Source: an uncultured bacterium | GTDB lineage: Bacteria; Krumholzibacteriota; Krumholzibacteriia; G020349025 | Direction: 5' to 3' | Assembly (NCBI GenBank): GCA_964567755.1 | Contig: CAZMNW010000061.1 | Coordinates: 4,890 to 68,889, forward strand | DNA length: 64,000 nucleotides | Shown: piece by piece, positions 3,211-58,999 of the stretch | Position numbering within the stretch: the stretch's first letter is position 1 | Layout of the letters: the number at the start of each line of letters is the position of its first letter | The notes under the pieces: generated by a model | What the model saw: only the letters and a program-made list of their open reading frames with translations | The model's database searches: none | Told to the model about the DNA's origin: nothing | Translations under genes and position numbers: made by a program

Positions 3211-4098
3211 TCATCGCAGCGCGGCGGTCACCGCGCGCAGGTGCTCGGGCGTCGTGCCGCAGCAGCCGCCGATGAGCCGGGCGCCGAGGGTGCGCCACGT
3301 TGCGGCGATGCGGCCGTACTCGACGGGCGGCGTCCGTGTGTCGGGCGCCCAGTCGCCCGCGGGCGTTTCGTGGCCGAAGTTGGCGTAGGCGCCGATGGGT
3401 CGCTTGTCGGCGGGCCAATGCATGCGCTCGAGGGCCAGAGTCACCACGTGCGGCGGCGAGCAGTTGACCAGGAAGCCGGCCACGGGCAGCGGGCGGATGT
3501 GCGCCCATGCGACATCGAGATCCTCGCCCGAGAGGAGGTCGCCCTCGCCTGCGGGATCGAGGATCAAACTGACGAGTACGGGGAGACCGGTTTCGAGCGC
3601 GACGAGCGCTGCGTCGTGCGCTTCGCGAGCGGTGTTCATCGTCTCGACGAGAAGGAGATCCACGCCCGCGGCCTGCAAATGCCGTGCGTGCAGCGTGTGC
3701 TCGCGAAGCAGCACGTCGCCGGGCGGCACACGCTCGGGATGGAAGCAATCTTCGAGCGGGGCCATGCAGCCGGCCACGAGACCGCGACCCGCATGCGTGC
3801 ACGCACGGCGCGCGAGGGCAACGGTGCGCCGCGTGAGCTCCTGGGCGTCCGCTTCGCGGCCGAGCTTGCGCAACGTGTACGGCGTCGAGCGAAATGTATT
3901 GGCCGTCAGGATATCGGCGCCAGCGAGCAAGTAGTCGCTGTGGATTTTTTCCAACACATCGGGTGCGATCGTCGCTGCTTCCGCAGTCCAGAGCGGTGGC
4001 TGCGCCGGCACACCACGCCGTTGCAACTCCGTCCCGATGGCGCCGTCCAAGAACACGACATCGCGGGATGCCAAGAGGTTTTCGAACGCACTGGCCAT
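3211..4098 (-). CDS. Homocysteine S-methyltransferase family protein (stand-alone)
   Basis: LDGAIGTELQRRG, GADILTANTF, LVNCS and IGGCCGTTPEH zinc motifs. Start re-picked at ATG 4098. Confidence 0.92.
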   Translation of the reverse strand: MASAFENLLASRDVVFLDGAIGTELQRRGVPAQPPLWTAEAATIAPDVLEKIHSDYLLAGADILTANTFRSTPYTLRKLGREADAQELTRRTVALARRACTHAGRGLVAGCMAPLEDCFHPERVPPGDVLLREHTLHARHLQAAGVDLLLVETMNTAREAHDAALVALETGLPVLVSLILDPAGEGDLLSGEDLDVAWAHIRPLPVAGFLVNCSPPHVVTLALERMHWPADKRPIGAYANFGHETPAGDWAPDTRTPPVEYGRIAATWRTLGARLIGGCCGTTPEHLRAVTAALR

Positions 4099-4297
4099 GT
4101 CACGCTCCGGATGCGCGCTGCGAGTCGATTCTGCCAGGGACCAGACGGCGGCGCCACCGCGGCGCCGGTTGCGTGCTATCTCTTGTTCGGCTAGGGTCTT
4201 CGGCTGGCGAGGCCACCGGGAAAACAGGGTGCAGCGAGCCGGGACGGCGTTGCCCAACGCGACCCCGAATCGCCGGCGAAACAAGCAGGAGATCTCG

Positions 4298-5455
4298 TTG
4301 GCCGTTGCGACCGTCGACAAGCTGCTGCAGGACGCCGCCGCTGGGCGCCGTCTCTCGACCGACGATGCCTTGCGCTTGTACCACGACGCCAATCTGCTCG
4401 ACCTCGGGCAAGCGGCACGCGCGGCGCGCTTCCGCCACGTTCCCGATCGCCGGGTCACTTACCTCGTCGACCGCAACATCAACTACACCAACGTTTGCAT
4501 CACCGACTGCCACTTCTGCGCTTTCTACCGCCCCAGCGAGTCTCATCCCGAGGCGTACACGTTGTCGCGCGCCGAGATCGCGGCGAAAATGAACGAGCTG
4601 CTCGATGCCGGCGGCACGCGCGTTCTCATGCAGGGTGGCCACAACCCGCGCCTGCCACTCGCGTGGTACGAAGATCTGCTGCGCTGGCTGCGTGCGGAGT
4701 ATCCCGAGATCGAATTGAACTGCTTTTCGCCTTCCGAAATCGACCATATCGCAGGGGTCGAAGGTTGCACGATGGAAGATGTCCTAGTGCGCCTGCAAGC
4801 GGCCGGGCTCGCCGGTCTCCCGGGCGGTGGCGCCGAGATGCTCGACGACGCGGTGCGCGGGCGCGTGAGCCCGAAGAAACAGAGCGCCACAGGTTGGTTG
4901 GAAGCGATGCGGATTGCCCAGGGGTTGGGACTCGTGACGACGGCCACCATGGTCATCGGCTTCGGTGAAACGCTCGCCCAGCGCTTGGGTCACCTGCAGA
5001 AGATTCGCGACTTGCAGGACGAGAGCCAGCGCGCGCATGGCAACGGCTTCGCCGCCTTCATCGCTTGGACCCTGCAGATCGAGAACACGTCCCTCGGCGG
5101 CAGCAAGGAACGCGAGCGCTACGGCACGAGCGCCCACGAGTACCTGCGGCTGGTCGCCATGGCACGACTCTTCCTCGACAACTTCGATCACATCCAGGCG
5201 TCGTGGCCGACGCAGGGACCGCAGCTCGCGCAGGTGGCGCTCGAGTTCGGCTGCGACGATTTCGGCAGCACGATGATGGAAGAGAATGTGGTATCCGCTG
5301 CGGGAACGAGTCTGTGCTCCGTGGCCGAGGTCTCGTTGCAGCGCCATATCCAGGACGCCGGCTATCTGCCGGCGCAACGCGATTCCCGCTACGACATCGT
5401 GCGCGTCATCCATCGAGTTCCGGACCCTGCCTCGCCCCGGCGTCACCGCGTATGA
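4298..5455 (+). CDS. mqnC: Cyclic dehypoxanthinyl futalosine synthase (radical SAM; futalosine menaquinone pathway)
   Basis: DRNINYTNVCITDCHFCAFYR (CxxxCxxC), MQGGHNP, LPGGGAE and DFGSTMMEENVVSAAG. TTG start after AGGAG. Confidence 0.88.
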   Translation: MAVATVDKLLQDAAAGRRLSTDDALRLYHDANLLDLGQAARAARFRHVPDRRVTYLVDRNINYTNVCITDCHFCAFYRPSESHPEAYTLSRAEIAAKMNELLDAGGTRVLMQGGHNPRLPLAWYEDLLRWLRAEYPEIELNCFSPSEIDHIAGVEGCTMEDVLVRLQAAGLAGLPGGGAEMLDDAVRGRVSPKKQSATGWLEAMRIAQGLGLVTTATMVIGFGETLAQRLGHLQKIRDLQDESQRAHGNGFAAFIAWTLQIENTSLGGSKERERYGTSAHEYLRLVAMARLFLDNFDHIQASWPTQGPQLAQVALEFGCDDFGSTMMEENVVSAAGTSLCSVAEVSLQRHIQDAGYLPAQRDSRYDIVRVIHRVPDPASPRRHRV

Positions 5456-6387: not shown

Positions 6388-7695
6388 ATGCGATTCCGCG
6401 TTTCAATGCTGGCCTGGAGTGTGGCGGTCATCGGCCTCGCCAGTGGGTTCGAGCCGGTTGCCGCCCAGAATCCCGGCCAGGGTGCGGCCGCCGACAGCGT
6501 GGGCGAAAGTCTGCACGAACGCCTGCAACGCGAAGGCGCTCAACGGTTCGATCCCGAGTTGCTCGAATCCAATCGCTCCTTCCAGGACTCGGTCCTCGCC
6601 AGCCTCGACTCACTGGGACTCGAGGCGCAAAAGAAGAAAACGCGCTTCCGTCTTGGTGTCGATTTCAATCTCGGCGAGCGACTGTGGAACTACAATCGCG
6701 TCGAGGGCTTGGTCGCCGCCGCTGGCATTGGCCTGAAGCGGGGACGTGACGACGAACCCTGGGCCACGTTTCAGGGCGGCTATGCTTTCGGCAGCGAGAA
6801 ATTCCGCCACCTCGAGACTCTCGAGATCCCGATCGGTCCCGAGACTTGGGGCCTCGCTACCGCCGCATCCTTCGGCGAGCGCGTCGTGCCCTACGGCTCG
6901 AACCGCCCGCGCTGGAACAGCCTGCGCGCGTTCGTGGGCGGAGAAGATGCGCAAGAATACCTCGGCAGCCGCGGCGGCGGCGCTTTTCTGCACTGGCGCA
7001 AGTGGCGGAGCGTGCGGCTGTCAGCAGGTTACGAGGCGGCCGAAGAAACGAGCGTCGCAGCAACAACCGAGTTCGCTTTGTTCGGCGACATGGCCCCGGT
7101 CAACATCCCGGTTCAAGACGGAACCGACCGCGCCATCGTCGCCCGGCTCCATCTCGGCTCGCTCGCGCGCCACATGGTGCGCCTCGACGCCGAGCATCGC
7201 GTCGCCGGCGGCGACATAGGCGGCAGCTTCACTTACAATCGCACCGATCTCGATCTCACATTGCGACGCTATTTCTGGCGCCAGGAGCTGGTGCTGCAAA
7301 CGCACTATGTGCACACGGGCGGCGATGCACCCGTGCAGCGTCTTGCGGATATCGGTGGCGTGAGCACGGTGCGCGGCTGGAAGCAGCGCGCACAGGTCGG
7401 GGAGTCGTCGCTCGCCGCGCGGCTGGAGTATCTCATTCCGTATGACCTCTTCGAGCGAGCGCGAATCCCCATCTTGTGGCGATTGCAGCTCCAGCTCGTG
7501 CCCTGGGCCGACGCGGGGCGAACCTGGGATGGTGCCGCGGATGTCTGGATCACGTCCGCAGGCCTGGGTGTCCAACATTTCCTGGGGGATTTTGGCGCGC
7601 CGACCTCTCTCCGCTTCGACGTGGCGCTGCCCATGGGCCCGGACCGCTCGCGTGACGTGCGGCTCGAGCTACACTTCGTCCGCGGTGTATTCTGA
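6388..7695 (+). CDS. Outer-membrane beta-barrel protein (DUF5686 C-terminal/Omp85-like barrel)
   Basis: Signal peptide, WNYNRVEG motif, amphipathic strands and C-terminal Phe (RLELHFVRGVF). Confidence 0.7.
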   Translation: MRFRVSMLAWSVAVIGLASGFEPVAAQNPGQGAAADSVGESLHERLQREGAQRFDPELLESNRSFQDSVLASLDSLGLEAQKKKTRFRLGVDFNLGERLWNYNRVEGLVAAAGIGLKRGRDDEPWATFQGGYAFGSEKFRHLETLEIPIGPETWGLATAASFGERVVPYGSNRPRWNSLRAFVGGEDAQEYLGSRGGGAFLHWRKWRSVRLSAGYEAAEETSVAATTEFALFGDMAPVNIPVQDGTDRAIVARLHLGSLARHMVRLDAEHRVAGGDIGGSFTYNRTDLDLTLRRYFWRQELVLQTHYVHTGGDAPVQRLADIGGVSTVRGWKQRAQVGESSLAARLEYLIPYDLFERARIPILWRLQLQLVPWADAGRTWDGAADVWITSAGLGVQHFLGDFGAPTSLRFDVALPMGPDRSRDVRLELHFVRGVF

Positions 7696-7729
7696 GGGCG
7701 GAGTGCAGCCGAAACATACAGGTGGATGC

Positions 7730-10447
7730 ATGGCCGAGGGAATGATCTCGCGCTACCAGATCCTCGACCGCCTCGGGGCGGGTGGCATGGGCGAGGTGTA
7801 CAAGGCGCTCGATACCAAGATGCGGCGCGAGGTAGCGCTCAAGCTGTTGCCGCCGGCGTACGTGCAGGATGCAGAGCGAGTCGCGCGCTTCAAGCAAGAA
7901 GCGTTCGCCACCTCGGCGCTCAATCATCCCAACATCACCACGATCTTCGAAATCGACGAAGCAGACGGCCATCACTTCATCAGTCTCGAGTACATCACCG
8001 GGCACGCGCTGCGGGTCCTGATTCGCGACGGCAAGCTCGAGCTGCGCCAGATTCTCGAGATCGCCGTGCAGGTGGCCGAAGGGCTGCATGCGGCACACGA
8101 AGCCGGCGTCGTGCATCGTGACCTCAAGCCCGAGAACATCATGGTGCGTCCGGATGGCATCGCCAAGATCCTCGACTTTGGTCTCGCCAAGCTCGGAAGC
8201 GCCCCGGAACCGCCGAGCCTGAGTGACGAAACACTCGTGCAAAGCTCGATGGGCGCCGCGGGACTGACGCAGCCGGGAATGGTTCTCGGCACCGTGGCCT
8301 ATATGTCTCCCGAGCAGGCGCGCGGTATGGAGACGGATCGCAGGTCCGACATCTTCACCTTCGGCAGCATTCTTCTGGAAATGCTGACGCGCAAGCAACC
8401 GTTCCATGCGCCGTCGAGCGTGGAGGTGATGCACGCCATCATTCACGACGCGCCGCGGTCGCTGCAGGAGCTCAGTGGCGGCATTCCGGTCGAGCTGCAT
8501 CGAATCGTGCGCAAAGCGATGGCGAAGGACCCGGGCGAGCGCTATCAGACAGCCAAAGATCTGGCGATCGACATGCGCGCGCTGCAGCGCGAGCTCGAGT
8601 CGGGCAGTGTGAGCGCGGTGCATGCGGCGTTCGCTACGGCACCCGCAGCGGGCACGGCAAAGTCGGCCGCGAGGCGCTCGCTGCGTTGGGTCGCTGGCTT
8701 GGCAACGTTCGCGGTCGTTGGGAGCCTCGTCGTGGTCGTGTTGATGAACCGCAGCTCGCGCGCGCCGGCGCCGGCGCCAGCGCTGCCGCTCGCGATCTCC
8801 AAGATCACCAATACGGGGAAGGCATCGGCGCCCGTGTTTGCACCCCGGGGCCAATTCCTCGCCTACACCAACACGGAGAACGATCAGGTGGCGATCCGGG
8901 TTCGACAGCTCGTCACCGGTACGGAAGTCGAGGCGGTGCCGGCCAAGCCGGACGTGGGTCTCGGCAACATGGCATTTTCTCCCGACGGCAATTGGTTGTT
9001 GTACACCACACGGAAACGCACGGAAGCGATGCGCACGCTGTGGCAAGTGTCTCCCCTCGGCGGCACGCCGCGCGAAGTCATGAAGGATGTCGACGGCGCC
9101 CCATCGTTCTTCTCTGACGGCACGCGTTTCGTTTTTCAACGTGCCAACGAGCAACGGCAGATGCGGTTTTTCATTGCGCCATTCGGCACTGCCGGGGAGC
9201 TGCAGGAGATCCACTCGGCCCCCGAGGGCGCCGTCGGGATTTCGACTCCCATGCTCTCACCCGACGGCGGCGAGATTCTCTATGCCCAGGTCAACGGCGA
9301 CGACGTTCTGCACCCAAGGCTGATGATCAAGACGCTGGATGGAGGTGCGTTGCGTCCCGTGCCTGGCCCGCTGTGGATGCTGCTTGTTGGCTACTGTTGG
9401 GCGCAGGATGGCAAGGGTGTTTATGTTGCCGGCTCGAGTTCCTGGATGGCGCGTCCTCAGATCTGGTACATCGGACTCGCCGAGGACGTCGTGCGCCGGG
9501 TGACGCAGGACCTCGAGGAGCACTCCCAGATCGTGCTGCGTGGCGATGGCAATGCGCTCGCTTCGGTGCGCACCACGGTCGCCGCACAGCTTTGGCACGT
9601 GCCAGTCGAAGGCACGCCGGCCGAGAATGGCGCCCGCGCGCACCAGATCACACGCGGCACTGGCCTCATGGGTTGGCCTCAGGTATCACCGGATGGCAAA
9701 ACTGTGGCGTTGGTTTCCGAAGCGAGCGGCCACATGGACCTGTGGGCGATGGACGTGGATGGATCCAATCTTCGCCAGCTCACGTTCGGCGCGGCGCAGG
9801 ACTTCGGTCAGAGTTGGTCTCCGGATGGCCGCCAGCTCGCATTCGCTTCCGAGAGCGAAGGCAACCTGCAAGTGTGGGTCGTGGACGCGGATGGTCACAA
9901 CCCGCGCCAGCTGACGCAGCTGGGCACGACGAACTATGCGCCTTCCTGGTCTCCGGACGGCCGGTGGATTGCCTTCATTGCATCCGTCGCGGACAGCGCC
10001 TTCCTGTGCAAGATCCCAGCCGAAGGTGGCGATCCCATCTTCATGAGTCGACGCGATCTCGCCATGATTCTGACCCGCTGGTCTCCCAACGGAACTTTCA
10101 TCGCCACCTGGCTGCAGCCGGAAAAGCCGACACCGCAGATCGCGGTGGGGCTCTTTCCCGCAGCCGGTGGCGAGATTCACAAGCTCCCGCTCTTGCCGCG
10201 CAGCCGCTGGACCTTGCTCAGTTTGCACTGGACCCCCGATGGCGACGCGCTCTCTCTCGTCGATCAAGTGCAGGGTGCCTGGGTGGTGCAGCGTGTGCCG
10301 CTCGATGGCAGCGAGCGCACGACCGTGGCTTCTTTCACCGAAGACCAGACGCTCTTCAACTTCGATTGGGTACCGGGTGGCCGCGCTCTCATTGCTCAAC
10401 GCGGGACCATCAGTTCCGACATCGTGTTGCTCGAGAACCTGCCGTAA
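7730..10447 (+). CDS. Hanks-type Ser/Thr kinase with a TM helix and extracytoplasmic TolB/PD40 beta-propellers
   Basis: LGAGGMGEVY, VALK, HRDLKPEN, DFGLAK and GTVAYMSPEQ; one TM helix; repeated FSPDG/WSPDG. Confidence 0.95.
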   Translation: MAEGMISRYQILDRLGAGGMGEVYKALDTKMRREVALKLLPPAYVQDAERVARFKQEAFATSALNHPNITTIFEIDEADGHHFISLEYITGHALRVLIRDGKLELRQILEIAVQVAEGLHAAHEAGVVHRDLKPENIMVRPDGIAKILDFGLAKLGSAPEPPSLSDETLVQSSMGAAGLTQPGMVLGTVAYMSPEQARGMETDRRSDIFTFGSILLEMLTRKQPFHAPSSVEVMHAIIHDAPRSLQELSGGIPVELHRIVRKAMAKDPGERYQTAKDLAIDMRALQRELESGSVSAVHAAFATAPAAGTAKSAARRSLRWVAGLATFAVVGSLVVVVLMNRSSRAPAPAPALPLAISKITNTGKASAPVFAPRGQFLAYTNTENDQVAIRVRQLVTGTEVEAVPAKPDVGLGNMAFSPDGNWLLYTTRKRTEAMRTLWQVSPLGGTPREVMKDVDGAPSFFSDGTRFVFQRANEQRQMRFFIAPFGTAGELQEIHSAPEGAVGISTPMLSPDGGEILYAQVNGDDVLHPRLMIKTLDGGALRPVPGPLWMLLVGYCWAQDGKGVYVAGSSSWMARPQIWYIGLAEDVVRRVTQDLEEHSQIVLRGDGNALASVRTTVAAQLWHVPVEGTPAENGARAHQITRGTGLMGWPQVSPDGKTVALVSEASGHMDLWAMDVDGSNLRQLTFGAAQDFGQSWSPDGRQLAFASESEGNLQVWVVDADGHNPRQLTQLGTTNYAPSWSPDGRWIAFIASVADSAFLCKIPAEGGDPIFMSRRDLAMILTRWSPNGTFIATWLQPEKPTPQIAVGLFPAAGGEIHKLPLLPRSRWTLLSLHWTPDGDALSLVDQVQGAWVVQRVPLDGSERTTVASFTEDQTLFNFDWVPGGRALIAQRGTISSDIVLLENLP

Positions 10448-49753: not shown

Positions 49754-51340
49754 TCAGGGTGGCGCGTGGGAGGAATCGCGCGGAACGAAAACTTCGGCGA
49801 ACCCGGGAGTCACGAACCGAGTCTCGTGTCCAGCGATGCGTGCACGCACATCAAAAGACCCCTGCAGCTGGAGAAAGACCTGTTCCTCGGGTTGGCGCAT
49901 TCGGCTCGAGGCGACGTGGTGGACATCGAGCCGCACGTCGATCCGATCACGCTCGGCCGGGTTCAAGTGAGTGGTCCCGGATTCGGACGTGGCTGCAAGC
50001 GTCATCGCCGTCGGCGCGTGCGGGGCGCCACCGGCTGGTGCTTCGCTCCAGTCATATTGCGTCGCTTGCGGCCGAAAGAGTGCGAGCGTGCCCCCACGTT
50101 GCCCAGCGCTGCGGGCTTGCGCCAGGAGCAAGAAGATGCCGGCGCCAGCCGCGCCGGGGCTGTGTGTCGGATGTTCCACCCGGCCATACAAGAGCGCGTG
50201 CTCCGCGCTGCTCGCGGTTCCCCATTCCCAACTGACGCCGCGCCAAGTGCCCCAGTTGTGATCGTGATAGCCGGGAACTTCGCGCAATGTGAGCGTGACC
50301 CCCGGGGCCCGAATGGTGCCCGAAACCCAGGTGCGCAATGCCGGCACGGTGTAGCCCGAGATCCACCGTTCGCTGTCCTGGATGAGCACCGGAGGATAGT
50401 AAAGATCCAGCAGCGGACGAACCGTGAGATCGGCGTACACAGGTCCCCGTGGATCGGTCCACTCCAGATGCAATTGGTAAGCCCCATCGCGAAAGGTGGC
50501 GGTCGTGTGCGCGCCGAAACGCAGATCGACTCCTGCGAGCGAAATGCCGTCGGCTGCGAGCGGCATCTCCGTCCGCAGCTCATGGGCTGGTTCGCCGGGG
50601 CTCACGATCTGCAGGAGTGAAGTCGCGCGACCTTGACCGGCCTCGATGTCGCCGCTCGCGATCAAGCTCACAGTGCCGAAGACACCAGTCGCGGGATCGG
50701 TGAAGTTGAAGTACAGCCATTCTGCCCAGCGGTCGAGGTCGGGGAGAGTGCGCGGCGGCAAGTGGAAGCGATCCATGTCGTTGTACAGCGAGTCGACAGG
50801 TGGATCCACCCACATACGATCCGCGTCATGGTCACGCCAGACGATGCCCTGGCGCACAAATGCCGCCGTCGGGCCGCCGGCCGCGACATCGAGGCTCGGG
50901 ATGAAACCGTGCGCCAGAACCTCGAGAGGGGCCGCCGGCGTGCCTGCAGGCACGGCTAGCCGCGCATACATCACTTTCTCCACCAGCCCCGGCGAGGCGG
51001 CGGCGAATGGAAGGTCGGCATAATCCGGCGTCACGGGCGCGAAGGTCGCCGCGAAGCGCGGTCCCGAGAGCACTTGCCGGAACAGGAAGCGCGCATTGGC
51101 GAGCATGGAGTACATCCCCGTCGGGCCACCGATCTTCATGACCTCGACATCGATGCCGGCGGGAAGGAGCAGGAGGTCGCCGCCGCCGACCAGGTCCTTG
51201 TCGGTGGCTTGCACGAGAACCGCCTCGCCAATGGAGAGCAGGGTGATCATGACACCGACGGCGATGCCGAGACCCAAGAGCAGCATCGCCGTGCGGCGAG
51301 GACGATCGCTCAACGTGCGCAACGCCAACATCCCGATCAT
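49754..51340 (-). CDS. MacB/LolE-type permease N-terminal segment fused to a lipocalin/AttH(CrtC)-like domain
   Basis: RTAMLLLGLGIAVGVMITLLSIG TM1, then a soluble region with AEWLYFNF and GYHDHNWG. No C-terminal TM bundle. Confidence 0.65.
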   Translation of the reverse strand: MIGMLALRTLSDRPRRTAMLLLGLGIAVGVMITLLSIGEAVLVQATDKDLVGGGDLLLLPAGIDVEVMKIGGPTGMYSMLANARFLFRQVLSGPRFAATFAPVTPDYADLPFAAASPGLVEKVMYARLAVPAGTPAAPLEVLAHGFIPSLDVAAGGPTAAFVRQGIVWRDHDADRMWVDPPVDSLYNDMDRFHLPPRTLPDLDRWAEWLYFNFTDPATGVFGTVSLIASGDIEAGQGRATSLLQIVSPGEPAHELRTEMPLAADGISLAGVDLRFGAHTTATFRDGAYQLHLEWTDPRGPVYADLTVRPLLDLYYPPVLIQDSERWISGYTVPALRTWVSGTIRAPGVTLTLREVPGYHDHNWGTWRGVSWEWGTASSAEHALLYGRVEHPTHSPGAAGAGIFLLLAQARSAGQRGGTLALFRPQATQYDWSEAPAGGAPHAPTAMTLAATSESGTTHLNPAERDRIDVRLDVHHVASSRMRQPEEQVFLQLQGSFDVRARIAGHETRFVTPGFAEVFVPRDSSHAPP

Positions 51341-52023
51341 GATTCCGCCTCGATGTGCCCGTCACGCATGCGCAGTCGACGCGATGCGCGCGCCGCGAGC
51401 TCGGGATTGTGGGTCACGAGGACGATGGCGACACCAGCCGCATGCAGTGTCTCCAGCAAGGCAGCGATCTGTGCCCCCGTGGCCTCATCGAGCTCTCCCG
51501 TGGGTTCGTCGGCGAGCAACAGCTGCGGCCGGTTGACCAGGGCGCGCGCGATCGCCACGCGCTGCTGTTCGCCGCCGGAGAGCTGTCCCGGCTTGTGCCG
51601 CAGCCGGTGTGCGAGCCCGACGGTGGTCAGAACCTCGCGGACACGGGCTTCGCGCTCCGCCTTGGGCAAGCGGGCTTCGAGTGCCGGCAACGCCACGTTC
51701 TCGCCCGCGGTCAACATGGGCAGCAGGAAGAAGCGTTGGAAGACGAAACCAAGGGTGCGCAGTCGCAGTTCGGTGCGCATGGCATCGGACGCACCGATCA
51801 TGTCGCGCCCAAAGAGCCGGAGCTCGCCGGAGGTCGGTACGTCGACCGCGCCCAGGAGGTGCAGCAGCGTCGACTTGCCACATCCAGAGGGTCCCATGAT
51901 GGAAACGAACTCGCCCGGCTGCACGCTCAAGTTCACCGCGCGCAGCGCGTGAATGTCATGACCGTCCAGGACATAATCCTTGCGCAAGTCCCGTGCGACG
52001 ACGATCGGATCCGCTGGCTTCAT
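51337..52023 (-). CDS. ABC transporter ATP-binding protein (LolD/MacB-like)
   Basis: GPSGCGKST, LSGGEQQRVAIARAL, LADEPTGELD and VTH. Confidence 0.96.
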   Translation of the reverse strand: MKPADPIVVARDLRKDYVLDGHDIHALRAVNLSVQPGEFVSIMGPSGCGKSTLLHLLGAVDVPTSGELRLFGRDMIGASDAMRTELRLRTLGFVFQRFFLLPMLTAGENVALPALEARLPKAEREARVREVLTTVGLAHRLRHKPGQLSGGEQQRVAIARALVNRPQLLLADEPTGELDEATGAQIAALLETLHAAGVAIVLVTHNPELAARASRRLRMRDGHIEAES

Positions 52024-53225
52024 CCGATCACCTCGCGATGCAACGTCGGCGCAATGCGCAAGCGCGCGACAAGAAACGCCGGATATAAACCGGCCAGCGC
52101 ACCGCACAGCAACAACAGCACGAAGGTTCGCAGCACAGCCCGTGGTGTGAGAACGAAGAAGCTCAAGTCGACGGGAATGCTGGGGGCGCGGGTCAAGATG
52201 GCGTCGAGCCAGAGCGCGATGGCGAGTCCCGCCCCGAAGGTGATCGGGAGCGACAGAACCACCAGGCTCAGACTTTCCAAGAACACCAACGACACCAGGC
52301 GGCGGCGCCGCAATCCGACGGCACGCAAGATCGCGAGCTCGCCCAGTCGTTCGCCGAGAGACAACGCCACCAACGTGCCAACGAGCAACACACATACGAT
52401 CATGCTCACGGTGCCGAGAACGAGAGAAAAAAGGTTGAAATAGGTAAGCTGCCCTTGCACGGTGTCGAGTGCTTCGGCCATCGAGTACGCCTCCACTTCG
52501 GGAAACGTCGAGCGAATCCACGCCGACATCGCTTCACCCGTGCCGGCCGTGCCGGAGCCCTCGTCACGCAAGGCCACGGCGATGAGCGACAAACCATCGC
52601 GTGCCGCTTCGCCGCGCAGGAGCTGTGCCTGCCGCGTGCCGACAGCCAAGCTGCGCTGCGCGCGCAGATCGAAATGGAAGCTCGCGATGCCGCACACCGC
52701 GTAGCTTCGTGGCGAATGGAGCATGCCGACTTGGCTGGTGTACTCGGCGGCCACGAAGACCGTGTCTCCCGGAGCGATCTCGAGGGCATTCGCCAATGCG
52801 CGGCTCACGACTGCTTGCGTGCTGTCGGCGAGATCGGCGCCCTCGACCACGCGCCACAACGCGACCGAGGGCGGGTTCATGCCATAGACGAAGGCGGCCA
52901 CGGGGACACCATTCGGCCTGGCGGCGTACACCGTGCCGCCGACGATGGGCGCCACGTGCGCGACGCGCGCGTCGCCGGCGATCGCGGCCGCGATGCGATG
53001 TCCGTCGGGAAACGTGGCGTCGGTCTCGAACGGCAATGTGCCGCGTGGGGTCACCCGCACTTCGTAGCCGATGTTCTCGAGAATCCGGCGTAAGCTCGCT
53101 TGCAGGCCGCGCGACAGCATTTGCATGTCGAGCAGCAACGCGCCCGCGACGCCGACGCCGACAATGCCGAGCAGCGTGCGCGCACGGTGGCGAAACAAAC
53201 CACGCAGCACCAGGAAGCCGATCAC
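52020..53225 (-). CDS. FtsX/MacB-type ABC permease (complete 4-TM)
   Basis: N-terminal TM, periplasmic domain, ERLGELAILRAVG and three C-terminal TMs. Confidence 0.9.
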   Translation of the reverse strand: MIGFLVLRGLFRHRARTLLGIVGVGVAGALLLDMQMLSRGLQASLRRILENIGYEVRVTPRGTLPFETDATFPDGHRIAAAIAGDARVAHVAPIVGGTVYAARPNGVPVAAFVYGMNPPSVALWRVVEGADLADSTQAVVSRALANALEIAPGDTVFVAAEYTSQVGMLHSPRSYAVCGIASFHFDLRAQRSLAVGTRQAQLLRGEAARDGLSLIAVALRDEGSGTAGTGEAMSAWIRSTFPEVEAYSMAEALDTVQGQLTYFNLFSLVLGTVSMIVCVLLVGTLVALSLGERLGELAILRAVGLRRRRLVSLVFLESLSLVVLSLPITFGAGLAIALWLDAILTRAPSIPVDLSFFVLTPRAVLRTFVLLLLCGALAGLYPAFLVARLRIAPTLHREVIG

Positions 53226-53242
53226 GGGTCACCTGCCAACGG

Positions 53243-54082
53243 TCAGCGGCCGACGCAATCCAACGGATCGCGTCCCACGATGTGCCGCGCCACCAATCCT
53301 CCGGCGAGCAAGCCGGCGACAATCGAAAGCCCGGCCGCGAGGATCACGATCTCCGGGGTGACGCGCGCGAAGACGAGATCGGTGTCGTACCGGGCGCGTG
53401 ACGCCGGGTTGATGATGGCCACGGCGAGGTGCGCCAGACCCATCCCGGCGATGCTGCCCAACAAGGAGACGAGGGCCGAGATGAGAACCACACCACGCAC
53501 GATGGTGCGTCGAGAAATCCCGATGAGGCGCAGCACTCCGAGTTCGCGTCGCAACGATTCCACTTTGAGCACCATGATGGCGACGAGGAACACCAGACCG
53601 GCCAGCATCGACACCAAGCCGATGGCCTTGTGGAACTGTGAAATGACCACGAACGTGGAGGAATTCCGTGCCGCGACCTCACGCGCGCTGTAGGCGCCGA
53701 TGCCGATGCCCATGCCGTTGATCTCGCTGGCGACTCGCTCGGCTTGCAGGGGATCCCGCAGGCGCACTGCGAAACGGTCGACACGATCCATGCTTCCCGT
53801 CAAGCGCTCCAGGTCCGGAAGATGCATCGTCACGTGCAACTGTTCGAAGCCCACCTCGAAAGGATCCGGCGAGGGTCGGACGATGCCGCCGACGACGAAG
53901 CGGCGTGTGTTGCGCATGGCGGCGTCGGCGGCGATCTCCAACGTATCCCCTAGCCCCGCGCCGAGCGCGTCGGCCGTGCGGTCGCTCAAGACCACATCCG
54001 AGAGCGGCATCGTGGCCGGGGCGCTCGCGATGCAGACGCGAGCCATGAGAATGAAAACGAAGAAGATCGCGGCACGGCACAT
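53243..54082 (-). CDS. FtsX/MacB-type ABC permease lacking the N-terminal half
   Basis: Signal-like N-terminus (VCIASA), partial periplasmic domain, RRELGVLRLIG and three TMs. Confidence 0.75.
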   Translation of the reverse strand: MCRAAIFFVFILMARVCIASAPATMPLSDVVLSDRTADALGAGLGDTLEIAADAAMRNTRRFVVGGIVRPSPDPFEVGFEQLHVTMHLPDLERLTGSMDRVDRFAVRLRDPLQAERVASEINGMGIGIGAYSAREVAARNSSTFVVISQFHKAIGLVSMLAGLVFLVAIMVLKVESLRRELGVLRLIGISRRTIVRGVVLISALVSLLGSIAGMGLAHLAVAIINPASRARYDTDLVFARVTPEIVILAAGLSIVAGLLAGGLVARHIVGRDPLDCVGR

Positions 54083-54167: not shown

Positions 54168-54941
54168 TCACGCCGTGTGCGTCGACTGGCCGTTGCGCGC
54201 GCCGGCGACCCAAAGGGCGCGGTCGAGATCGATGGCGATCCAGCGCGGGCGCGGCAAGCGATCGACGAAGGCGCGCACGGCGCCACCGACGAGTGCCGCG
54301 GCGGCAGCGGCTGCGTGTGTCGCGGCCTGGTCGGCGCAATCGCCGGCTGCGGCGAGGGCGTCATCGGAGAGCGACGCTTCGTAGACGGAGACATCCTCCG
54401 GATCCGATGGCTGCACCTCGTGCAGGCGCACGAGACCGCGTCCGATGCGCAGATCCAGCACCAGCAAAATGCCTGCATCTCCGCGCAAGCGTTCCCACAG
54501 TTGCCGGCGTGTGGCCATGGTGTCGACGGCGAGCACCACGATCGGCGAGCGCCGCTGCTGTGGGCTCGCGATAAAACTCTCTGCATGCATCTCCACCCGG
54601 CAGCCAGGAACGATGGTCTGCAGCAGACCACGCAGCGCTTTCACCTTCTGCCGCCCCGCCGCCACGTCGCGCCGGCGATACAGCTGCAGACCCTGATTCT
54701 CGGCTCCCAGTCGGTCGCCGTCGTAGAGTCGCAGTTGCAGTCCCAGCATCGCCAGGACGAGAGCGATCTGCGACCCAGAGCGTCCGACTCCGACGATGGT
54801 GACTTCGACATCCGTCAGGTGCAAGGCGTCGAACCCGGCGTCATCCAGCGTCATGAGCTTCTGGGAACGCTCGCGATTCTGCCCCGGCGTGGACGGAACA
54901 TCACCGGGTGAAGTCGTGGATAGTGCGATTCGTTGCGTCAT
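54168..54941 (-). CDS. ThiF/E1-like ubiquitin-like-protein activating enzyme
   Basis: GVGRSGS, YDGDRL..EN...Q.Y, QKVKAL and AVDT..TRR; a single Cys in GDCADQ; no Zn CxxC pairs; GGAGG RBS. Confidence 0.88.
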   Translation of the reverse strand: MTQRIALSTTSPGDVPSTPGQNRERSQKLMTLDDAGFDALHLTDVEVTIVGVGRSGSQIALVLAMLGLQLRLYDGDRLGAENQGLQLYRRRDVAAGRQKVKALRGLLQTIVPGCRVEMHAESFIASPQQRRSPIVVLAVDTMATRRQLWERLRGDAGILLVLDLRIGRGLVRLHEVQPSDPEDVSVYEASLSDDALAAAGDCADQAATHAAAAAAALVGGAVRAFVDRLPRPRWIAIDLDRALWVAGARNGQSTHTA

Positions 54942-55791
54942 CGATTGCCACCTCCGTTGCATCCGGGACATCGAGCCACAGCGACAATCCTTGCGGCACT
55001 TTCCCTTGCCGATCGCCGCGCAGCACCGGGCGCCATTCTTTCGGGCAGGCGTCGAGAGGGACACCGATCACCCGCCGCGACGTTTCCGCCGCGACTTGGG
55101 CGATGAAACCGATTCGCGGCATCAATCGCGGCGGCGCGACGAGGACGACTTCTCGCGCGCTGGTGGCGAGCAGCCCGGCGAGCAGCACCACTTCGCTCCA
55201 TGAGAGAGTCTCGAGGCGCCACAGGCCGTGCTGGCCAAGGCGCCAGAATGGACCTCCACGTTCGCCACGGCATGGCAGATCGAGCCCGCGTTCGCCGATC
55301 CAACGCTCGCGTTGCGGACCCTGAGCATGCAGCACCGGGGGGACGAAGAACGCCTCGCCCAAGCTGCGCAGCCGCGGCGAATGAATGGCTGCCACAGCGG
55401 CGAGGCCCTTCCAAGATCGATCCGGTGCGGCGCCATCCTCGAGCGCCAGATAGGCGCAGGATCGTCCACGCAGATTCGCTTCGTAGAGAAACACACAGGG
55501 ACGGAAGATTGGGAGCAGTGCGTCGAGTGTGTCGGTCGCGCGTCGAGCCTGCGCGAAGCAAGCTGCGGCCAGCGCGGTCTCGAGACAGACAAGATGCTGC
55601 GGGGCGCTATTCGACAGGCCAGGTGCGGCGTGAGATTCCGCCGCCAGACATGCCCCGTGCAATGCTCTCTGTTGAATCTCCACGGCTGCCGCGTCGAATC
55701 GGCCGCAGCTCCACTCGTCCTGGGTTTCGGGTGCGACGAGCATGTCCTGCAATGGCAGGTGAAAATTTCGCCAGAACTCGCGCCACGGCAT
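54901..55791 (-). CDS. Hypothetical protein in the Ubl/E1 operon
   Basis: About 296 aa; starts 19 nt after the upstream stop and overlaps the E1 start by 41 nt. No family recognised. Confidence 0.6.
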   Translation of the reverse strand: MPWREFWRNFHLPLQDMLVAPETQDEWSCGRFDAAAVEIQQRALHGACLAAESHAAPGLSNSAPQHLVCLETALAAACFAQARRATDTLDALLPIFRPCVFLYEANLRGRSCAYLALEDGAAPDRSWKGLAAVAAIHSPRLRSLGEAFFVPPVLHAQGPQRERWIGERGLDLPCRGERGGPFWRLGQHGLWRLETLSWSEVVLLAGLLATSAREVVLVAPPRLMPRIGFIAQVAAETSRRVIGVPLDACPKEWRPVLRGDRQGKVPQGLSLWLDVPDATEVAIDDATNRTIHDFTR

Positions 55792-55810: not shown

Positions 55811-56383
55811 TCAGTTCTCTCGCAGATACGCGATGGTGGTCAGAAACAGCGTGCGCAGATCCAAGCGATTGAGCGCCCATCCCATGTAGGCGAAGCCGGC
55901 GTCCCCATAGCAGCGTGGCATTGCATCCTTGGTCTGGGATGGATTCGATGCGTCCAGCTCCTGAATCTGAATGCGCCGGCGGCGCAACCCTTCGGGTAGC
56001 AAGAGGATGCGGAGATTGCGGTCCTGGACCTGGCTCGGAGCCACACGCGCTCCCAAACGATCGCGCGCAAACTCGAGAGCGGTCAAAGATCCACCCACGA
56101 GCGGCAACAATGCCTCGAGGCAGCGCGCCGCCTCGGCCAGGGGATCGCGCGTCACCCGACCGAAGAATGCGAGCAACGTCTCGGCGCGTTCGAGATCGAC
56201 GGACATCATCCGTGATGGTTCTCTGGAAGGATCGCGACGCAGAGCCAGGAAGTACTCCCGCCGCTGCCTGACATCCTGAAGTGCAAGCGACGCCTGACAG
56301 GTCAGGATTTGGCCAAGGCTCGCAAGAGCCTGCTGTCGCTTCGGCGGTGGCGGATTGCTTTCGCACACGGTCAAGGTGAACAT
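55811..56383 (-). CDS. Putative prokaryotic E2 (UBC-fold)-like protein with a helical N-terminus
   Basis: AAGGAAGGA RBS; C-terminal strands, then NPS..PRCYGDAG and helix WAL.RLDL..L...IAYL.EN. Family call is inference. Confidence 0.5.
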   Translation of the reverse strand: MFTLTVCESNPPPPKRQQALASLGQILTCQASLALQDVRQRREYFLALRRDPSREPSRMMSVDLERAETLLAFFGRVTRDPLAEAARCLEALLPLVGGSLTALEFARDRLGARVAPSQVQDRNLRILLLPEGLRRRRIQIQELDASNPSQTKDAMPRCYGDAGFAYMGWALNRLDLRTLFLTTIAYLREN

Positions 56384-56480
56384 CGACAGGTCCTTCCTTC
56401 GTAGCCACGGGCCCGAGAGGCCGAGATGCGCAGGCCCAGTACCCACGCGCCGGACGAACTGGCGCGGTGATGAACTGCCG

Positions 56481-56536: not shown

Positions 56537-56764
56537 TCAACCGCCGCGGATGTGCGGCATGAGCAAAGTCTCGGTGCCAGGCTGCACGATGGGATCGCCC
56601 ACCACGGGCGACCCGTTCATGAACAGCTGGCCGTTGCGGTTCGAGATCCCCAGCCCCTCCAGCATTTCCGACAGCCGAATGGAGCTCGTTTCCGGCAAGG
56701 GCACTTCGTATTCGCCCTCCGCCAAAATGACGACACGAGCCGATGGTTTGGCGCTGGTCTGCAT
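56537..56764 (-). CDS. Ubiquitin-like beta-grasp protein ending in Gly-Gly
   Basis: 75 aa after GGAGGA; ...QLFMNGSPVVGDPIVQPGTETLLMPHIRGG-stop. Confidence 0.85.
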   Translation of the reverse strand: MQTSAKPSARVVILAEGEYEVPLPETSSIRLSEMLEGLGISNRNGQLFMNGSPVVGDPIVQPGTETLLMPHIRGG

Positions 56765-57129
56765 CCTCATTCCTCCCAAATTTGCGCGGCGTGTTTTTCG
56801 GCACACTTGCGAGTGCGTGTGCAAACAACTCTGACGGCTCCATCATGCATGCCAGCGCGCTCGAATCCTCTTTCTCAGATTGGCTCTCAAGAAAACTCAG
56901 AAGTGCGCGATCTGGTGTCCCGAAAAAAGGACGTGTAGACATGACACACTCGGTGTCGATACACACCGGCGCTGTGGAAATCTGCCCACGAACACGAGTC
57001 AATGCACACAAACGCGGGGACTTCGCGGTGCTCTTGATCGACGGCGAGTCTTCTGGTAAACAAAGCAAGCGCGGCCCGCGCACGGAGACATTGCAATGCG
57101 TATGTACGCTTCGGCGAAGGGGCTTGGTC

Positions 57130-58203
57130 ATGCCGTCCGTCCACACCTTCAACCAGAGAACGCGCACCACCCACAAGTCGCTGGAAGAACTACTGAAGCT
57201 GCACGAAAAGGTGACACCGATGCAGCTGGCCGCGAAGCTCTATCCCGAAGAGGCGGCGCTCTTGGAGGAGATCGTGGCGTTCTTGGACTCGGTTCCTGAT
57301 GCGATCCAAAGGCTGCAGCCCGACGACTTGAAGCTCCTGCGCGCGATCGCCGAAGAGCTCGAAAACGGGCGACGCCGCAGTCGCCCGCTCAAGATTCTCG
57401 CGCGCAAGATCCTGTGCGCACCCAGCAGCGACTTCCAGGTGGAAAAAGCGCACGCCGCGCGCCTGAGGGATCTCTTCGAACAAGCTCTGGTGCAGGACGT
57501 GCAAACGCGCGTGCATGAGCTGCGCCTGCAGCTGCCGACACTGGGGACCGACGACCATGGACAGACGCTCACGGTGTCACGGTCGCCCTATCGTCTGCTG
57601 CGCGTCGATTGGACCTTGAGCGACGAGGACATGGTGGCCCTCGAAGCCGTGTATCCGATGTTCGACCGCCAAGCGTGGAAGGGCCCGCCGAGTTACATGG
57701 AAACCAAGGCGTTTCGCCTGGCGCAGGAGCGCCTGCGTTTCGCGCTCGCGACCGGCATGATCCTGGCGGATGACGGCACGCCGCTGCTGCAGCAGGGTGT
57801 GCGCAAGTGTTCGCTCAGCACCGCCGTGCGCGACCAGCTCGACTGGGTCGTCGAGGTGAGCGACAAGATGCAGCAGATTTTCGAAATCTTCTATGCTCCA
57901 TGCGCCACGGCGTGGGAACGCGATCGTTTCTATGCCCTGGCGGAATGGGCCGAACCGCACGCGGTGGACATCGTGCGTTTCATCTTGGCGTGCCGAAACG
58001 AGATCTTGCGGGTGATGAATGCCTTCTTCACCAGCATCGGCCAGAAGCCGTGGCCGGCGGTGCAGGGTCACGACTTCCCCCAACGGCTGGTGCCGCCCGG
58101 GAGGATTCCACAGCAGCCGTTCCTGGTCCTGCGCGACGACCTGCTGGCGATGCACCGGCGGCTGCGCGAGATCGGCGTCAATTACTTGTCGCGCGCGGCG
58201 TGA
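57130..58203 (+). CDS. Hypothetical helical protein divergent from the Ubl operon
   Basis: About 357 aa with protein-like composition; no motif recognised. Confidence 0.65.
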   Translation: MPSVHTFNQRTRTTHKSLEELLKLHEKVTPMQLAAKLYPEEAALLEEIVAFLDSVPDAIQRLQPDDLKLLRAIAEELENGRRRSRPLKILARKILCAPSSDFQVEKAHAARLRDLFEQALVQDVQTRVHELRLQLPTLGTDDHGQTLTVSRSPYRLLRVDWTLSDEDMVALEAVYPMFDRQAWKGPPSYMETKAFRLAQERLRFALATGMILADDGTPLLQQGVRKCSLSTAVRDQLDWVVEVSDKMQQIFEIFYAPCATAWERDRFYALAEWAEPHAVDIVRFILACRNEILRVMNAFFTSIGQKPWPAVQGHDFPQRLVPPGRIPQQPFLVLRDDLLAMHRRLREIGVNYLSRAA

Positions 58204-58303
58204 GCGCGGGGGCGAACCACCTCGGTCTCGGCTCCTGTTTCGCCAGCGAGAGTCGCGCACGCTACAGTGAATGCAGCCACCGGCGACGCGACGAGGAGAA
58301 CCG

Positions 58304-58999
58304 ATGCGCATGCACGTGGGCACGAGTGGCTACTCCTACAAGGAGTGGAAGCCGGCGTTCTATCCGCAAGAGCTCGCCTCGACTGCGATGCTGCGCTTCT
58401 ATGCCGAGCGGCTCGACACCGTCGAGATCAACAACACCTTCTACCGCATGCCGTCGAAGAAGGTCTTGCAAGGTTGGTGCGCCGAGGTTCCGCCATTTTT
58501 CCGTTTCGCGGTGAAGGCGACGCGGCGCGTCACGCACTTCAAGCGTCTGCGCGATGTGGGCAGCGAGCTGGATTTTCTCTTCGGGAATCTGGCGGCGCTC
58601 GAAGGCCGACTGGGGCCGGTGCTGTTCCAGCTGCCGCCGAATCTCGGCATCGACATGCCGCTGTTACAGGACTTCCTGGCCCAGGTGCCGCCCCACATCC
58701 AGAGCGTGCTGGAGTTTCGCGAGCCGTCCTGGTTCGACGACACGGTGTTTTCTTTGTTGCGGCAGAACGGTGTCGCCTTGTGTGCGATGGAGGAAGAGGA
58801 GGCGGAGGCGCGCGTCGTCCCGACCACCAATTTCGGCTACTTCCGCCTGCGGCGCGAGCGCTATTCCGCCGCGGAGCTCGAATCCTGGGTGGACCGCATC
58901 CGTGCCCAGCCGTGGGACGAAACTTTTGTCTACTTCAAACACGACACCGCCGCCCCGAACCTCGCCTTGGATTTCGTGCGCGCAACGCGCGGCGAATGA
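58304..58999 (+). CDS. DUF72 family protein
   Basis: VGTSGYSYKEW, VEINNTFYRMP, LFQLPP and EFR..SW. Confidence 0.95.
   Translation: MRMHVGTSGYSYKEWKPAFYPQELASTAMLRFYAERLDTVEINNTFYRMPSKKVLQGWCAEVPPFFRFAVKATRRVTHFKRLRDVGSELDFLFGNLAALEGRLGPVLFQLPPNLGIDMPLLQDFLAQVPPHIQSVLEFREPSWFDDTVFSLLRQNGVALCAMEEEEAEARVVPTTNFGYFRLRRERYSAAELESWVDRIRAQPWDETFVYFKHDTAAPNLALDFVRATRGE

Follow-up and report, generated by a model that had tools for sequence, protein, structure and literature searches.

A candidate E2-like carrier of a ubiquitin-like protein in a compact five-gene locus of Krumholzibacteriia

Four genes transcribed in one direction and a fifth, divergent one are encoded at the studied locus, which lies within a 64,000-nt stretch of DNA from an uncultured bacterium of the class Krumholzibacteriia (hereafter, the window; Table 1). 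The four genes of the block encode a ubiquitin-like protein (Ubl), a protein with a single conserved cysteine, named here Cys-190, a protein of no recognized family, named here gene 3, and a minimal ThiF-type E1; the divergent gene encodes a helical protein. Promoters presumably lie in the intergenic DNA that separates the helical gene from the Ubl operon. A preliminary description of this DNA had singled out the Cys-190 frame as a divergent E2/UBC-like candidate, and both the ORF and the sequence of its C-terminal half were found as given there.

Table 1. Genes and other features of the five-gene locus (positions in the window)
Feature	Coordinates	Strand	Description
Minimal ThiF-type E1	54168..54854	minus	core of ~215–228 aa; matches in Pfam, PADLOC, NCBIfam and PDB
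Gene 3	54901..55791	minus	296 aa; no family found; always between Cys-190 and E1
Cys-190 gene	55811..56383	minus	190 aa; putative E2-like Ubl carrier; evidence: ORF, alignments, model, dN/dS, Shine-Dalgarno, metatranscriptome contig
Ubl	56537..56764	minus	75 aa; ThiS/SAMP2-type beta-grasp; ends in ...HIRGG-stop
Divergent intergenic region	56765..57129		365 bp, flanked by the helical gene and the Ubl operon
Helical protein	57130..58203	plus	~357 aa; divergently transcribed; no family found

The Cys-190 frame is a real gene and not a chance ORF. Its dN/dS values in comparisons with two orthologs are 0.35 and 0.39, with dS of about 1, and the gene is under purifying selection. An alternative, longer frame would start from GTG at 56446 and encode 211 aa; the ATG at 56383 is favored, since each of the ten close homologs has a length of exactly 190 aa and the N-terminus MF(D/T)L. 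Moreover, a Shine-Dalgarno sequence, AGGAAGGA, is located 8 nt upstream of this ATG. A freshwater/sediment metatranscriptome contig of 179 nt matches positions 56106–56279 without a mismatch; this is weak evidence for expression, since such contigs are strandless and DNA carry-over is possible. The protein contains 25 arginines, two lysines and no histidine. This arginine-rich and lysine-poor makeup may be a composition effect of the GC-rich (64%) genome; the scarcity of lysines would also shield an enzyme handling a Ubl from self-modification.

The family is very small: when 1.84 billion (1.84e9) protein cluster representatives were searched exhaustively with an HMMER profile (cut-off E<=1e-3), 16 were retrieved, all of which reach E<=1e-10. 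Among 185,579 species represented by one genome each, three loci have been identified, one in each of two Krumholzibacteriia MAGs and the third in a “Latescibacterota” MAG, and in the phylum of the window the gene is present in 5 out of 208 genomes, all of them from one family (five of its seven genomes). The module is rare, and it is found in sediment bacteria. No relatives were found among PLSDB plasmids, INPHARED phages and IMG/VR contigs, and an association with phages or mobile elements was rejected on these grounds. The clean alignment of the family comprises 18 sequences with identity down to 26%; all alignments used here are shallow (9–18 sequences), and all source organisms are uncultured. 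One chimeric sequence, P0022 (208 aa, from a 1036-nt contig), combines the N-terminus of a formiminotransferase (FTCD_N) with 80 residues from the C-terminus of the Cys-190 family and is most likely an assembly or gene-call artefact. Weak matches in genomes of the same class and to formiminotransferases, obtained with a profile that contained this sequence, were discarded as artefacts, the genome matches having disappeared when the clean profile was used.

The gene order is well conserved. The block is comprised of genes encoding the Ubl (75–92 aa), Cys-190, gene 3 (280–380 aa) and the ThiF protein (~220–250 aa), with the helical protein (~330–420 aa) transcribed divergently upstream of it, and Cys-190 is always encoded by the second gene of the block, between the Ubl ending in GG and gene 3. 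This order is retained in the window and in L001, L003, L005 and L007, that is, in all five loci with enough sequence at approximately 50% identity, and the divergent loci L025 and L027/28 (32–37% identity) have it as well; short contigs L009–L011 and L029 contain as much of the block as their length allows. The Ubl gene is adjacent to the Cys-190 gene at every locus examined, the E1 gene is present wherever the contig reaches that far, and the helical gene adjoins the Ubl gene in every locus that extends to it, including the most distant ones. The genes outside the block vary by locus and encode a MacB-type ABC transporter, peptidase M1, ISL3 transposase, an alanine-racemase-like protein or MatE. 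As the flanking genes differ between loci, we consider the five genes to be a self-contained module. No JAB peptidase or other recognizable deubiquitinase (DUB) is encoded in it, as judged by comparison with Pfam, PADLOC and NCBIfam.

The Ubl ends with GG-stop in all nine orthologs, and, the di-glycine being free, no processing is needed. Pfam SAMP2 is matched by six out of eight Ubl orthologs (best E-value 5e-5), and ThiS, by four out of eight; SAMP2 is also the best profile match in PDB (E 0.037, full length).

The E1 has intact adenylation motifs: GxGRxGS, D45/D47...N53-Q54...R60, K70 and D111. Its invariant Cys173 (within DCxD in close orthologs) immediately precedes the conserved THAAAAAAAL helix, and by analogy with ThiF, MoeB and UBA5 it appears to occupy the crossover-loop position of the catalytic cysteine. 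Neither zinc-binding CxxC pairs, nor a rhodanese domain, nor an inserted CYS domain is present. The protein matches Pfam ThiF (2.5e-12), the E1 region of Cap2 in PADLOC (5e-9) and, in NCBIfam, the ThiS adenylyltransferase model of ThiF (3.5e-12, the best match there), as well as PRTRC_ThiF (6.6e-8). Its best solved relatives in PDB are UBA5 (3e-5) and Cap2 (4e-4), both of which are E1s that pass their cargo to an E2. With all adenylation residues and an invariant loop cysteine in place, a thioester relay is possible. Two other ThiF-family genes of the same genome score 272 and 102 bits, compared to 47 bits for the E1 of the module, and are likely the housekeeping MoeB/ThiF. The true start of the E1 is uncertain: the frame is open for 70 codons upstream, to 55064 (54854–55064), overlapping the end of gene 3, and the start codons available are ATG at 54944, which yields an overlap of ~44 nt with gene 3, and ATG at 54854, which leaves a 46-nt gap and is supported by orthologs.

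The two remaining proteins have no match in Pfam, NCBIfam, PADLOC or PDB. The invariant residues of gene 3 are mostly Trp, Arg, Asp, Gly and Pro, and the alignments of both gene 3 and the helical protein lack an invariant Cys, His, Ser or Lys. For this reason gene 3 is neither a JAB nor a Cys/Ser protease, and the two proteins are unlikely to be peptidases. Gene 3 may be an adaptor, an E3-like factor or a target, and the helical protein, to which a metatranscriptome contig matches at 57658–57818, may be a partner, a regulator or a target. Two other candidate roles of gene 3 were rejected by profile-profile comparison with hhalign, a degenerate adenylation-domain partner of the E1 (0.1%) and a relative of Cys-190 (1%).

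In the 18 sequences of the Cys-190 family, the invariant columns are M1, A85, L93, R125, R137, C158, G160, L171 and N190. Cys158, the cysteine of the PRCYG motif put forward earlier as the candidate active site, is conserved in 18 out of 18 sequences, down to 26% identity, and is the only one of the four cysteines of the protein to be so; together with Gly160 (also 18 out of 18) it reproduces one characteristic feature of the UBC/E2 superfamily, an invariant cysteine in the loop that leads from the last strand to the next helix. Another feature, HPN or its equivalent 8–10 residues before the cysteine, is not conserved in the 18 sequences. The triplet NPS, suggested in the preliminary description as its counterpart, does not hold up in the alignment: N147 is present in two, P148 in twelve and S149 in one out of 18 sequences, Pro148 alone being semi-conserved. 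No conserved His or Asn precedes Cys158 anywhere in this alignment, the window protein having no histidine at all, and no lysine is conserved, both lysines of the window protein being outside the invariant columns. Asn190, invariant and usually the last residue, had brought up the idea of an MccB-like modification of the C-terminus; this was rejected, as five out of 18 members have residues beyond this asparagine and a canonical Ubl substrate with GG is present. As for HPN, this motif is not universal among accepted E2s, since the class 6d bacterial E2s are bona fide E2s lacking its histidine (PMC1779556).

Searches with sequences and profiles lend no support to placing Cys-190 in any of the known E2 families. 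At E<=1, the window protein matches nothing in Pfam, none of the 18 family members matches E2, UEV or RWD Pfam models even at E<=10, and no matches were observed in NCBIfam and PADLOC, nor among PDB sequences scanned with phmmer and hmmsearch. Comparison by hhalign with Prok-E2_D (PRTRC protein B; the alignment was built from a genome of the same class as the window), the sole E2 family compared profile-to-profile, yielded a probability of 0.2%. The link to prokaryotic E2 families, for which a profile search had been proposed, was accordingly not recovered in Pfam, NCBIfam, PADLOC or this comparison.

The AlphaFold2 model, built on an alignment of ten sequences, is a confident single domain (pLDDT 87.9, pTM 0.84). 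According to DSSP, it starts with a short strand (residues 4–6) and helices 13–50, 58–79 and 81–95, followed by strands 100–105, 110–114, 124–131 and 135–144, a variable segment of low confidence (145–157), Cys158, and helices 161–172 and 176–189. The order of elements suggested earlier is thus reproduced by the model, with a helical N-terminal part of ~95 aa, strands, Cys158-x-Gly160 and two helices ending with AYLREN. From helix 81–95 onward, the predicted order fits the UBC/RWD core, in which an N-terminal helix is followed by a four-stranded antiparallel meander and by C-terminal helices, and the cysteine has the position known from E2s. Cys158 is placed three residues before helix 161–172 and ~14 residues after strand 135–144, in a loop where the confidence of the full model is lowest (pLDDT ~59); the catalytic cysteine of UbcH5 is likewise located ~14 residues past the fourth strand.

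Fold searches have been less conclusive. Foldseek found no PDB neighbor of the full-length model at E<=1e-3, the best matches being chain K of two kinetochore KMN-network entries (8q5h_K and 8ppr_K; E 0.18 and 0.34, TM 0.37–0.39), and a search of BFVD yielded nothing. Residues 78–190 were also modeled alone, to keep the N-terminal helices from dominating the search. The confidence then falls to pLDDT 59, and Foldseek again finds no significant neighbor; non-significant matches (E ~1–2) are the RWD domains of Spc24/Spc25, CENP-P and the E2 Atg10. RWD is a fold of the UBC superfamily, and the recurrence of RWD and Atg10 among these non-significant results is suggestive only, as a pointer to a UBC-superfamily fold. 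Hence, of the expectation that the predicted structure be UBC-like, the order of elements and the cysteine loop stand, whereas a significant Foldseek neighbor was not obtained (best E 0.18). The collapse of confidence in the isolated C-terminal part also bears on the N-terminal half, for which a role of a substrate or membrane adaptor had been considered: as residues 78–190 alone model poorly, the N-terminal helices are part of one fold and not a separable adaptor, and the protein is not an adaptor joined to an independent UBC domain. A membrane adaptor is contradicted by the absence of any hydrophobic segment, the maximum Kyte–Doolittle mean over 19 residues being 1.41.

What makes an E2-like function plausible is the invariable position of Cys-190 between a Ubl with GG and a ThiF-type E1 with a loop cysteine. 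We suggest that Cys-190 is the E2-like middle enzyme of a compact, DUB-less bacterial system of Ubl conjugation, in which a thioester would be relayed from the E1 to Cys158, and give this reading about even chances. All of the chemistry, as well as the targets and the role as an E2, is inferred, as follows. The minimal ThiF-type E1 would adenylate the free C-terminal Gly-Gly of the SAMP2/ThiS-like Ubl, and the Ubl would move onto the crossover-loop Cys173 of the E1 as a thioester. The E1 would then hand it over to Cys158 of Cys-190, located in the loop that connects the beta-meander with the first of the two C-terminal helices; E2 enzymes have their catalytic cysteine in the same position. Finally, Cys-190 would discharge the Ubl onto a target, and the non-catalytic gene 3 and/or the helical protein may assist as scaffolds that confer specificity. 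The role of the asparagine in the E2 HPN motif could be taken by Asn190, which is invariant and C-terminal. Against the E2 reading, the module has no DUB and no target has been identified. Moreover, an E2 is not required by the chemistry, as Ubls of the SAMP, Urm1 and TtuB types are conjugated without any E2.

By function, the module most resembles the non-canonical eukaryotic cascades, such as UBA5–UFC1–UFL1 or Atg7–Atg10. The UFM1 (UBA5, UFC1 and the scaffold-type E3 UFL1) and Atg7/Atg10/Atg3 pathways likewise feature a minimal non-canonical E1 with a crossover-loop cysteine and no inserted Cys domain, and E2s lacking HPN occur in both. UBA5 is the best solved relative of the E1, Atg10 is among the weak, non-significant fold matches, and gene 3 and the helical protein could be the non-catalytic scaffold partners. 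These pathways, however, are eukaryotic, there is no sequence relation to them outside the Rossmann core of the E1, and the fold match is non-significant.

By the list of parts and their local order, the closest system is PRTRC, with a small Ubl, a helical protein of ~360–370 aa without a Pfam family, a cysteine protein, a protein of 220–280 aa and a short, single-domain ThiF. PRTRC loci encode Prok_Ub, a helical protein of ~373 aa, Prok-E2_D, DUF2016/JAB and ThiF, beside ParB. They correspond to class “6d”, in which a Ubl is combined with a helical protein that has conserved charged residues, a His-less E2, JAB and a short ThiF (Iyer et al., 2006; PMC1779556); the classical histidine is thus missing from the 6d E2, as it is from Cys-190. 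The E1s of the two systems are homologous (hhalign 94%; NCBIfam PRTRC_ThiF 6.6e-8). In contrast, hhalign relates neither Cys-190 to Prok-E2_D (the 0.2% above), nor gene 3 to the JAB protein (0.3%), nor the two helical proteins (0.6%), nor the Ubl to Prok_Ub (0.06%), and NCBIfam PRTRC models are not matched by any module protein other than the E1. Neither a JAB motif, nor ParB, nor a mobile-element context is present, and the Ubl terminus is GG in the module, compared to ...KTNG in PRTRC. A diverged PRTRC system was, consequently, ruled out for all components except the E1 (hhalign <=0.6%).

The Ubl is closest to SAMP2/ThiS, and the module shares a Ubl with a free GG and a single ThiF-type E1 with a cysteine with the archaeal SAMP/UbaA and Thermus TtuB/TtuC systems. 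These systems, however, have no E2-like partner and lack dedicated operon genes comparable to those for Cys-190, gene 3 and the helical protein, and they serve also as sulfur carriers. Bacterial operons uniting E1 and E2 functions are known from Bil (BilABCD), Bub/6E and Type II CBASS (Cap2/Cap3), of which Bil and Bub also have a Ubl (PMC11601596). Bil encodes a two-domain (IAD-AAD-CYS) E1 along with a JAB peptidase, Bub has the DUF6527 serine protease and Cys-less E1 and E2 acting via oxyesters, and Type II CBASS has an E1–E2 fusion, JAB and CD-NTase (PMC11601596). None of these features occurs in the module: no peptidase family and no E2 recognizable by Pfam or PADLOC is found in it, its E1 has a single domain, and PADLOC matches are confined to the E1 core.

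A Ubl with GG, resembling ThiS and SAMP2, together with a ThiF-type E1 is also what ThiS/MoaD pathways contain, and the best NCBIfam match of the E1 is the ThiS adenylyltransferase model. The module could then be a biosynthetic one, in which the E1 would adenylate the Ubl for conversion to a thiocarboxylate, Cys158 would bear a persulfide or pass sulfur on in another way, and gene 3 and/or the helical protein, the two proteins of no known family, would be novel enzymes building a sulfur metabolite, possibly exported by the MacB-type transporter. Such a pathway would need no JAB peptidase, the GG being already free. We consider it unlikely. No sulfur donor (rhodanese or cysteine desulfurase), no acceptor enzyme such as ThiG, MoaE or CysM, and no PP-loop or YcaO/TfuA family was identified in the module with Pfam and NCBIfam. 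Invariant Cys, His, Lys or Ser residues are missing from gene 3 and the helical protein, and the strands of the Cys-190 model form an antiparallel meander, unlike those of rhodanese, TusA or DsrE-type folds. Separate, stronger ThiF/MoeB homologs are present in the genome as well. As to the transporter, a MacB/FtsX-type one (permeases and ATPase) is encoded on the same strand after the E1 in the window (49754–54082, minus), L003 (5409–6984) and L005 (2772–6259), and is absent beside the module in L001, L025 and L027; where present, it could reflect a functional link (export) or merely retained synteny. If sulfur relay is the function nevertheless, the module points to an unknown thio-metabolite pathway.

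Conjugation could also proceed without an E2, as in SAMP/Urm1-like systems, with Cys-190 being a dedicated target, a regulator, or an effector switched by attachment or binding of the Ubl. SAMP2-like Ubls are conjugated by the E1 alone in archaea (UbaA/SAMP), and the lack of a family tie between Cys-190 and E2s, as well as the large helical part integral to its fold, would agree with such a role. Speaking against it, Cys-190 has no conserved lysine (neither of the two in the window protein is invariant), and its single invariant nucleophile is a cysteine in an exposed-loop context beside an invariant glycine, a setting more in keeping with a catalyst or carrier than with a target; moreover, Cys-190 accompanies the Ubl at all loci examined and the E1 wherever the contig reaches it. 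This makes E2-independent conjugation distinctly unlikely. That Cys-190 is a novel cysteine peptidase replacing the missing JAB, as the absence of a recognizable DUB and the invariance of Cys158 and Asn190 might hint, is highly improbable, given that no invariant His or Asp is available for a dyad or triad, with histidine entirely absent from the window protein, that the Ubl requires no processing, and that no similarity to any peptidase family or fold was observed.

Returning to the E2-like reading, one may tentatively go further, to a proposal that we find possible and more doubtful: Cys-190 would be the founding member of an unrecognized, E2-type class of Ubl carriers, either independently invented or derived from a UBC relative diverged beyond detection. 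Joined by a SAMP2-like Ubl, a minimal UBA5/ThiF-like E1 and two partners that are novel and non-catalytic, it would constitute a DUB-less five-gene system confined to Krumholzibacteriia-like sediment bacteria. Three module proteins are invisible to every family library searched, and no description of this module was found in the libraries, structures and literature searched. Bacterial Ubl conjugation has been demonstrated recently for CBASS Cap2, Bil and Bub, with unexpected chemistry in each case. The present module would be the most stripped-down version yet, with a Ubl carrying a ready-made GG, a single-domain E1 and no deubiquitinase. If Cys-190 indeed carries the Ubl thioester, the sequence and structure space of the E2 function would be widened, and the module would bridge, in a simple form, the gap from E1-only sulfur-carrier/SAMP systems to full E1–E2 cascades, bearing on the evolution of ubiquitination.

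Several genes around these and related loci deserve mention. A complete PRTRC system (ParB, Prok_Ub, Prok-E2_D and DUF2016/JAB) is encoded in a genome of the same class (L034, G104 contig 11, 2274–14732), beside Mrr-like, N6/N4 methyltransferase and ResIII genes; this defence-island-like setting differs from the housekeeping-looking surroundings of the Cys-190 module. A DUF72-family gene is located just past the helical gene in the window (58271–58999, plus strand) and in L001 (1958–2580). In L025 the module is followed by genes encoding an ISL3 transposase and an AAA_14/DUF4143 ATPase (3347–5310), which hints that in some lineages the module resides near mobile DNA. Finally, in L027 and L028, which among the complete loci are the most divergent, the E1 is directly followed by a gene (8143–8832 and 7550–8239, respectively) for a protein of 229 aa that matches Peptidase_M50 faintly; this protein might be a protease that partners the module in this lineage.
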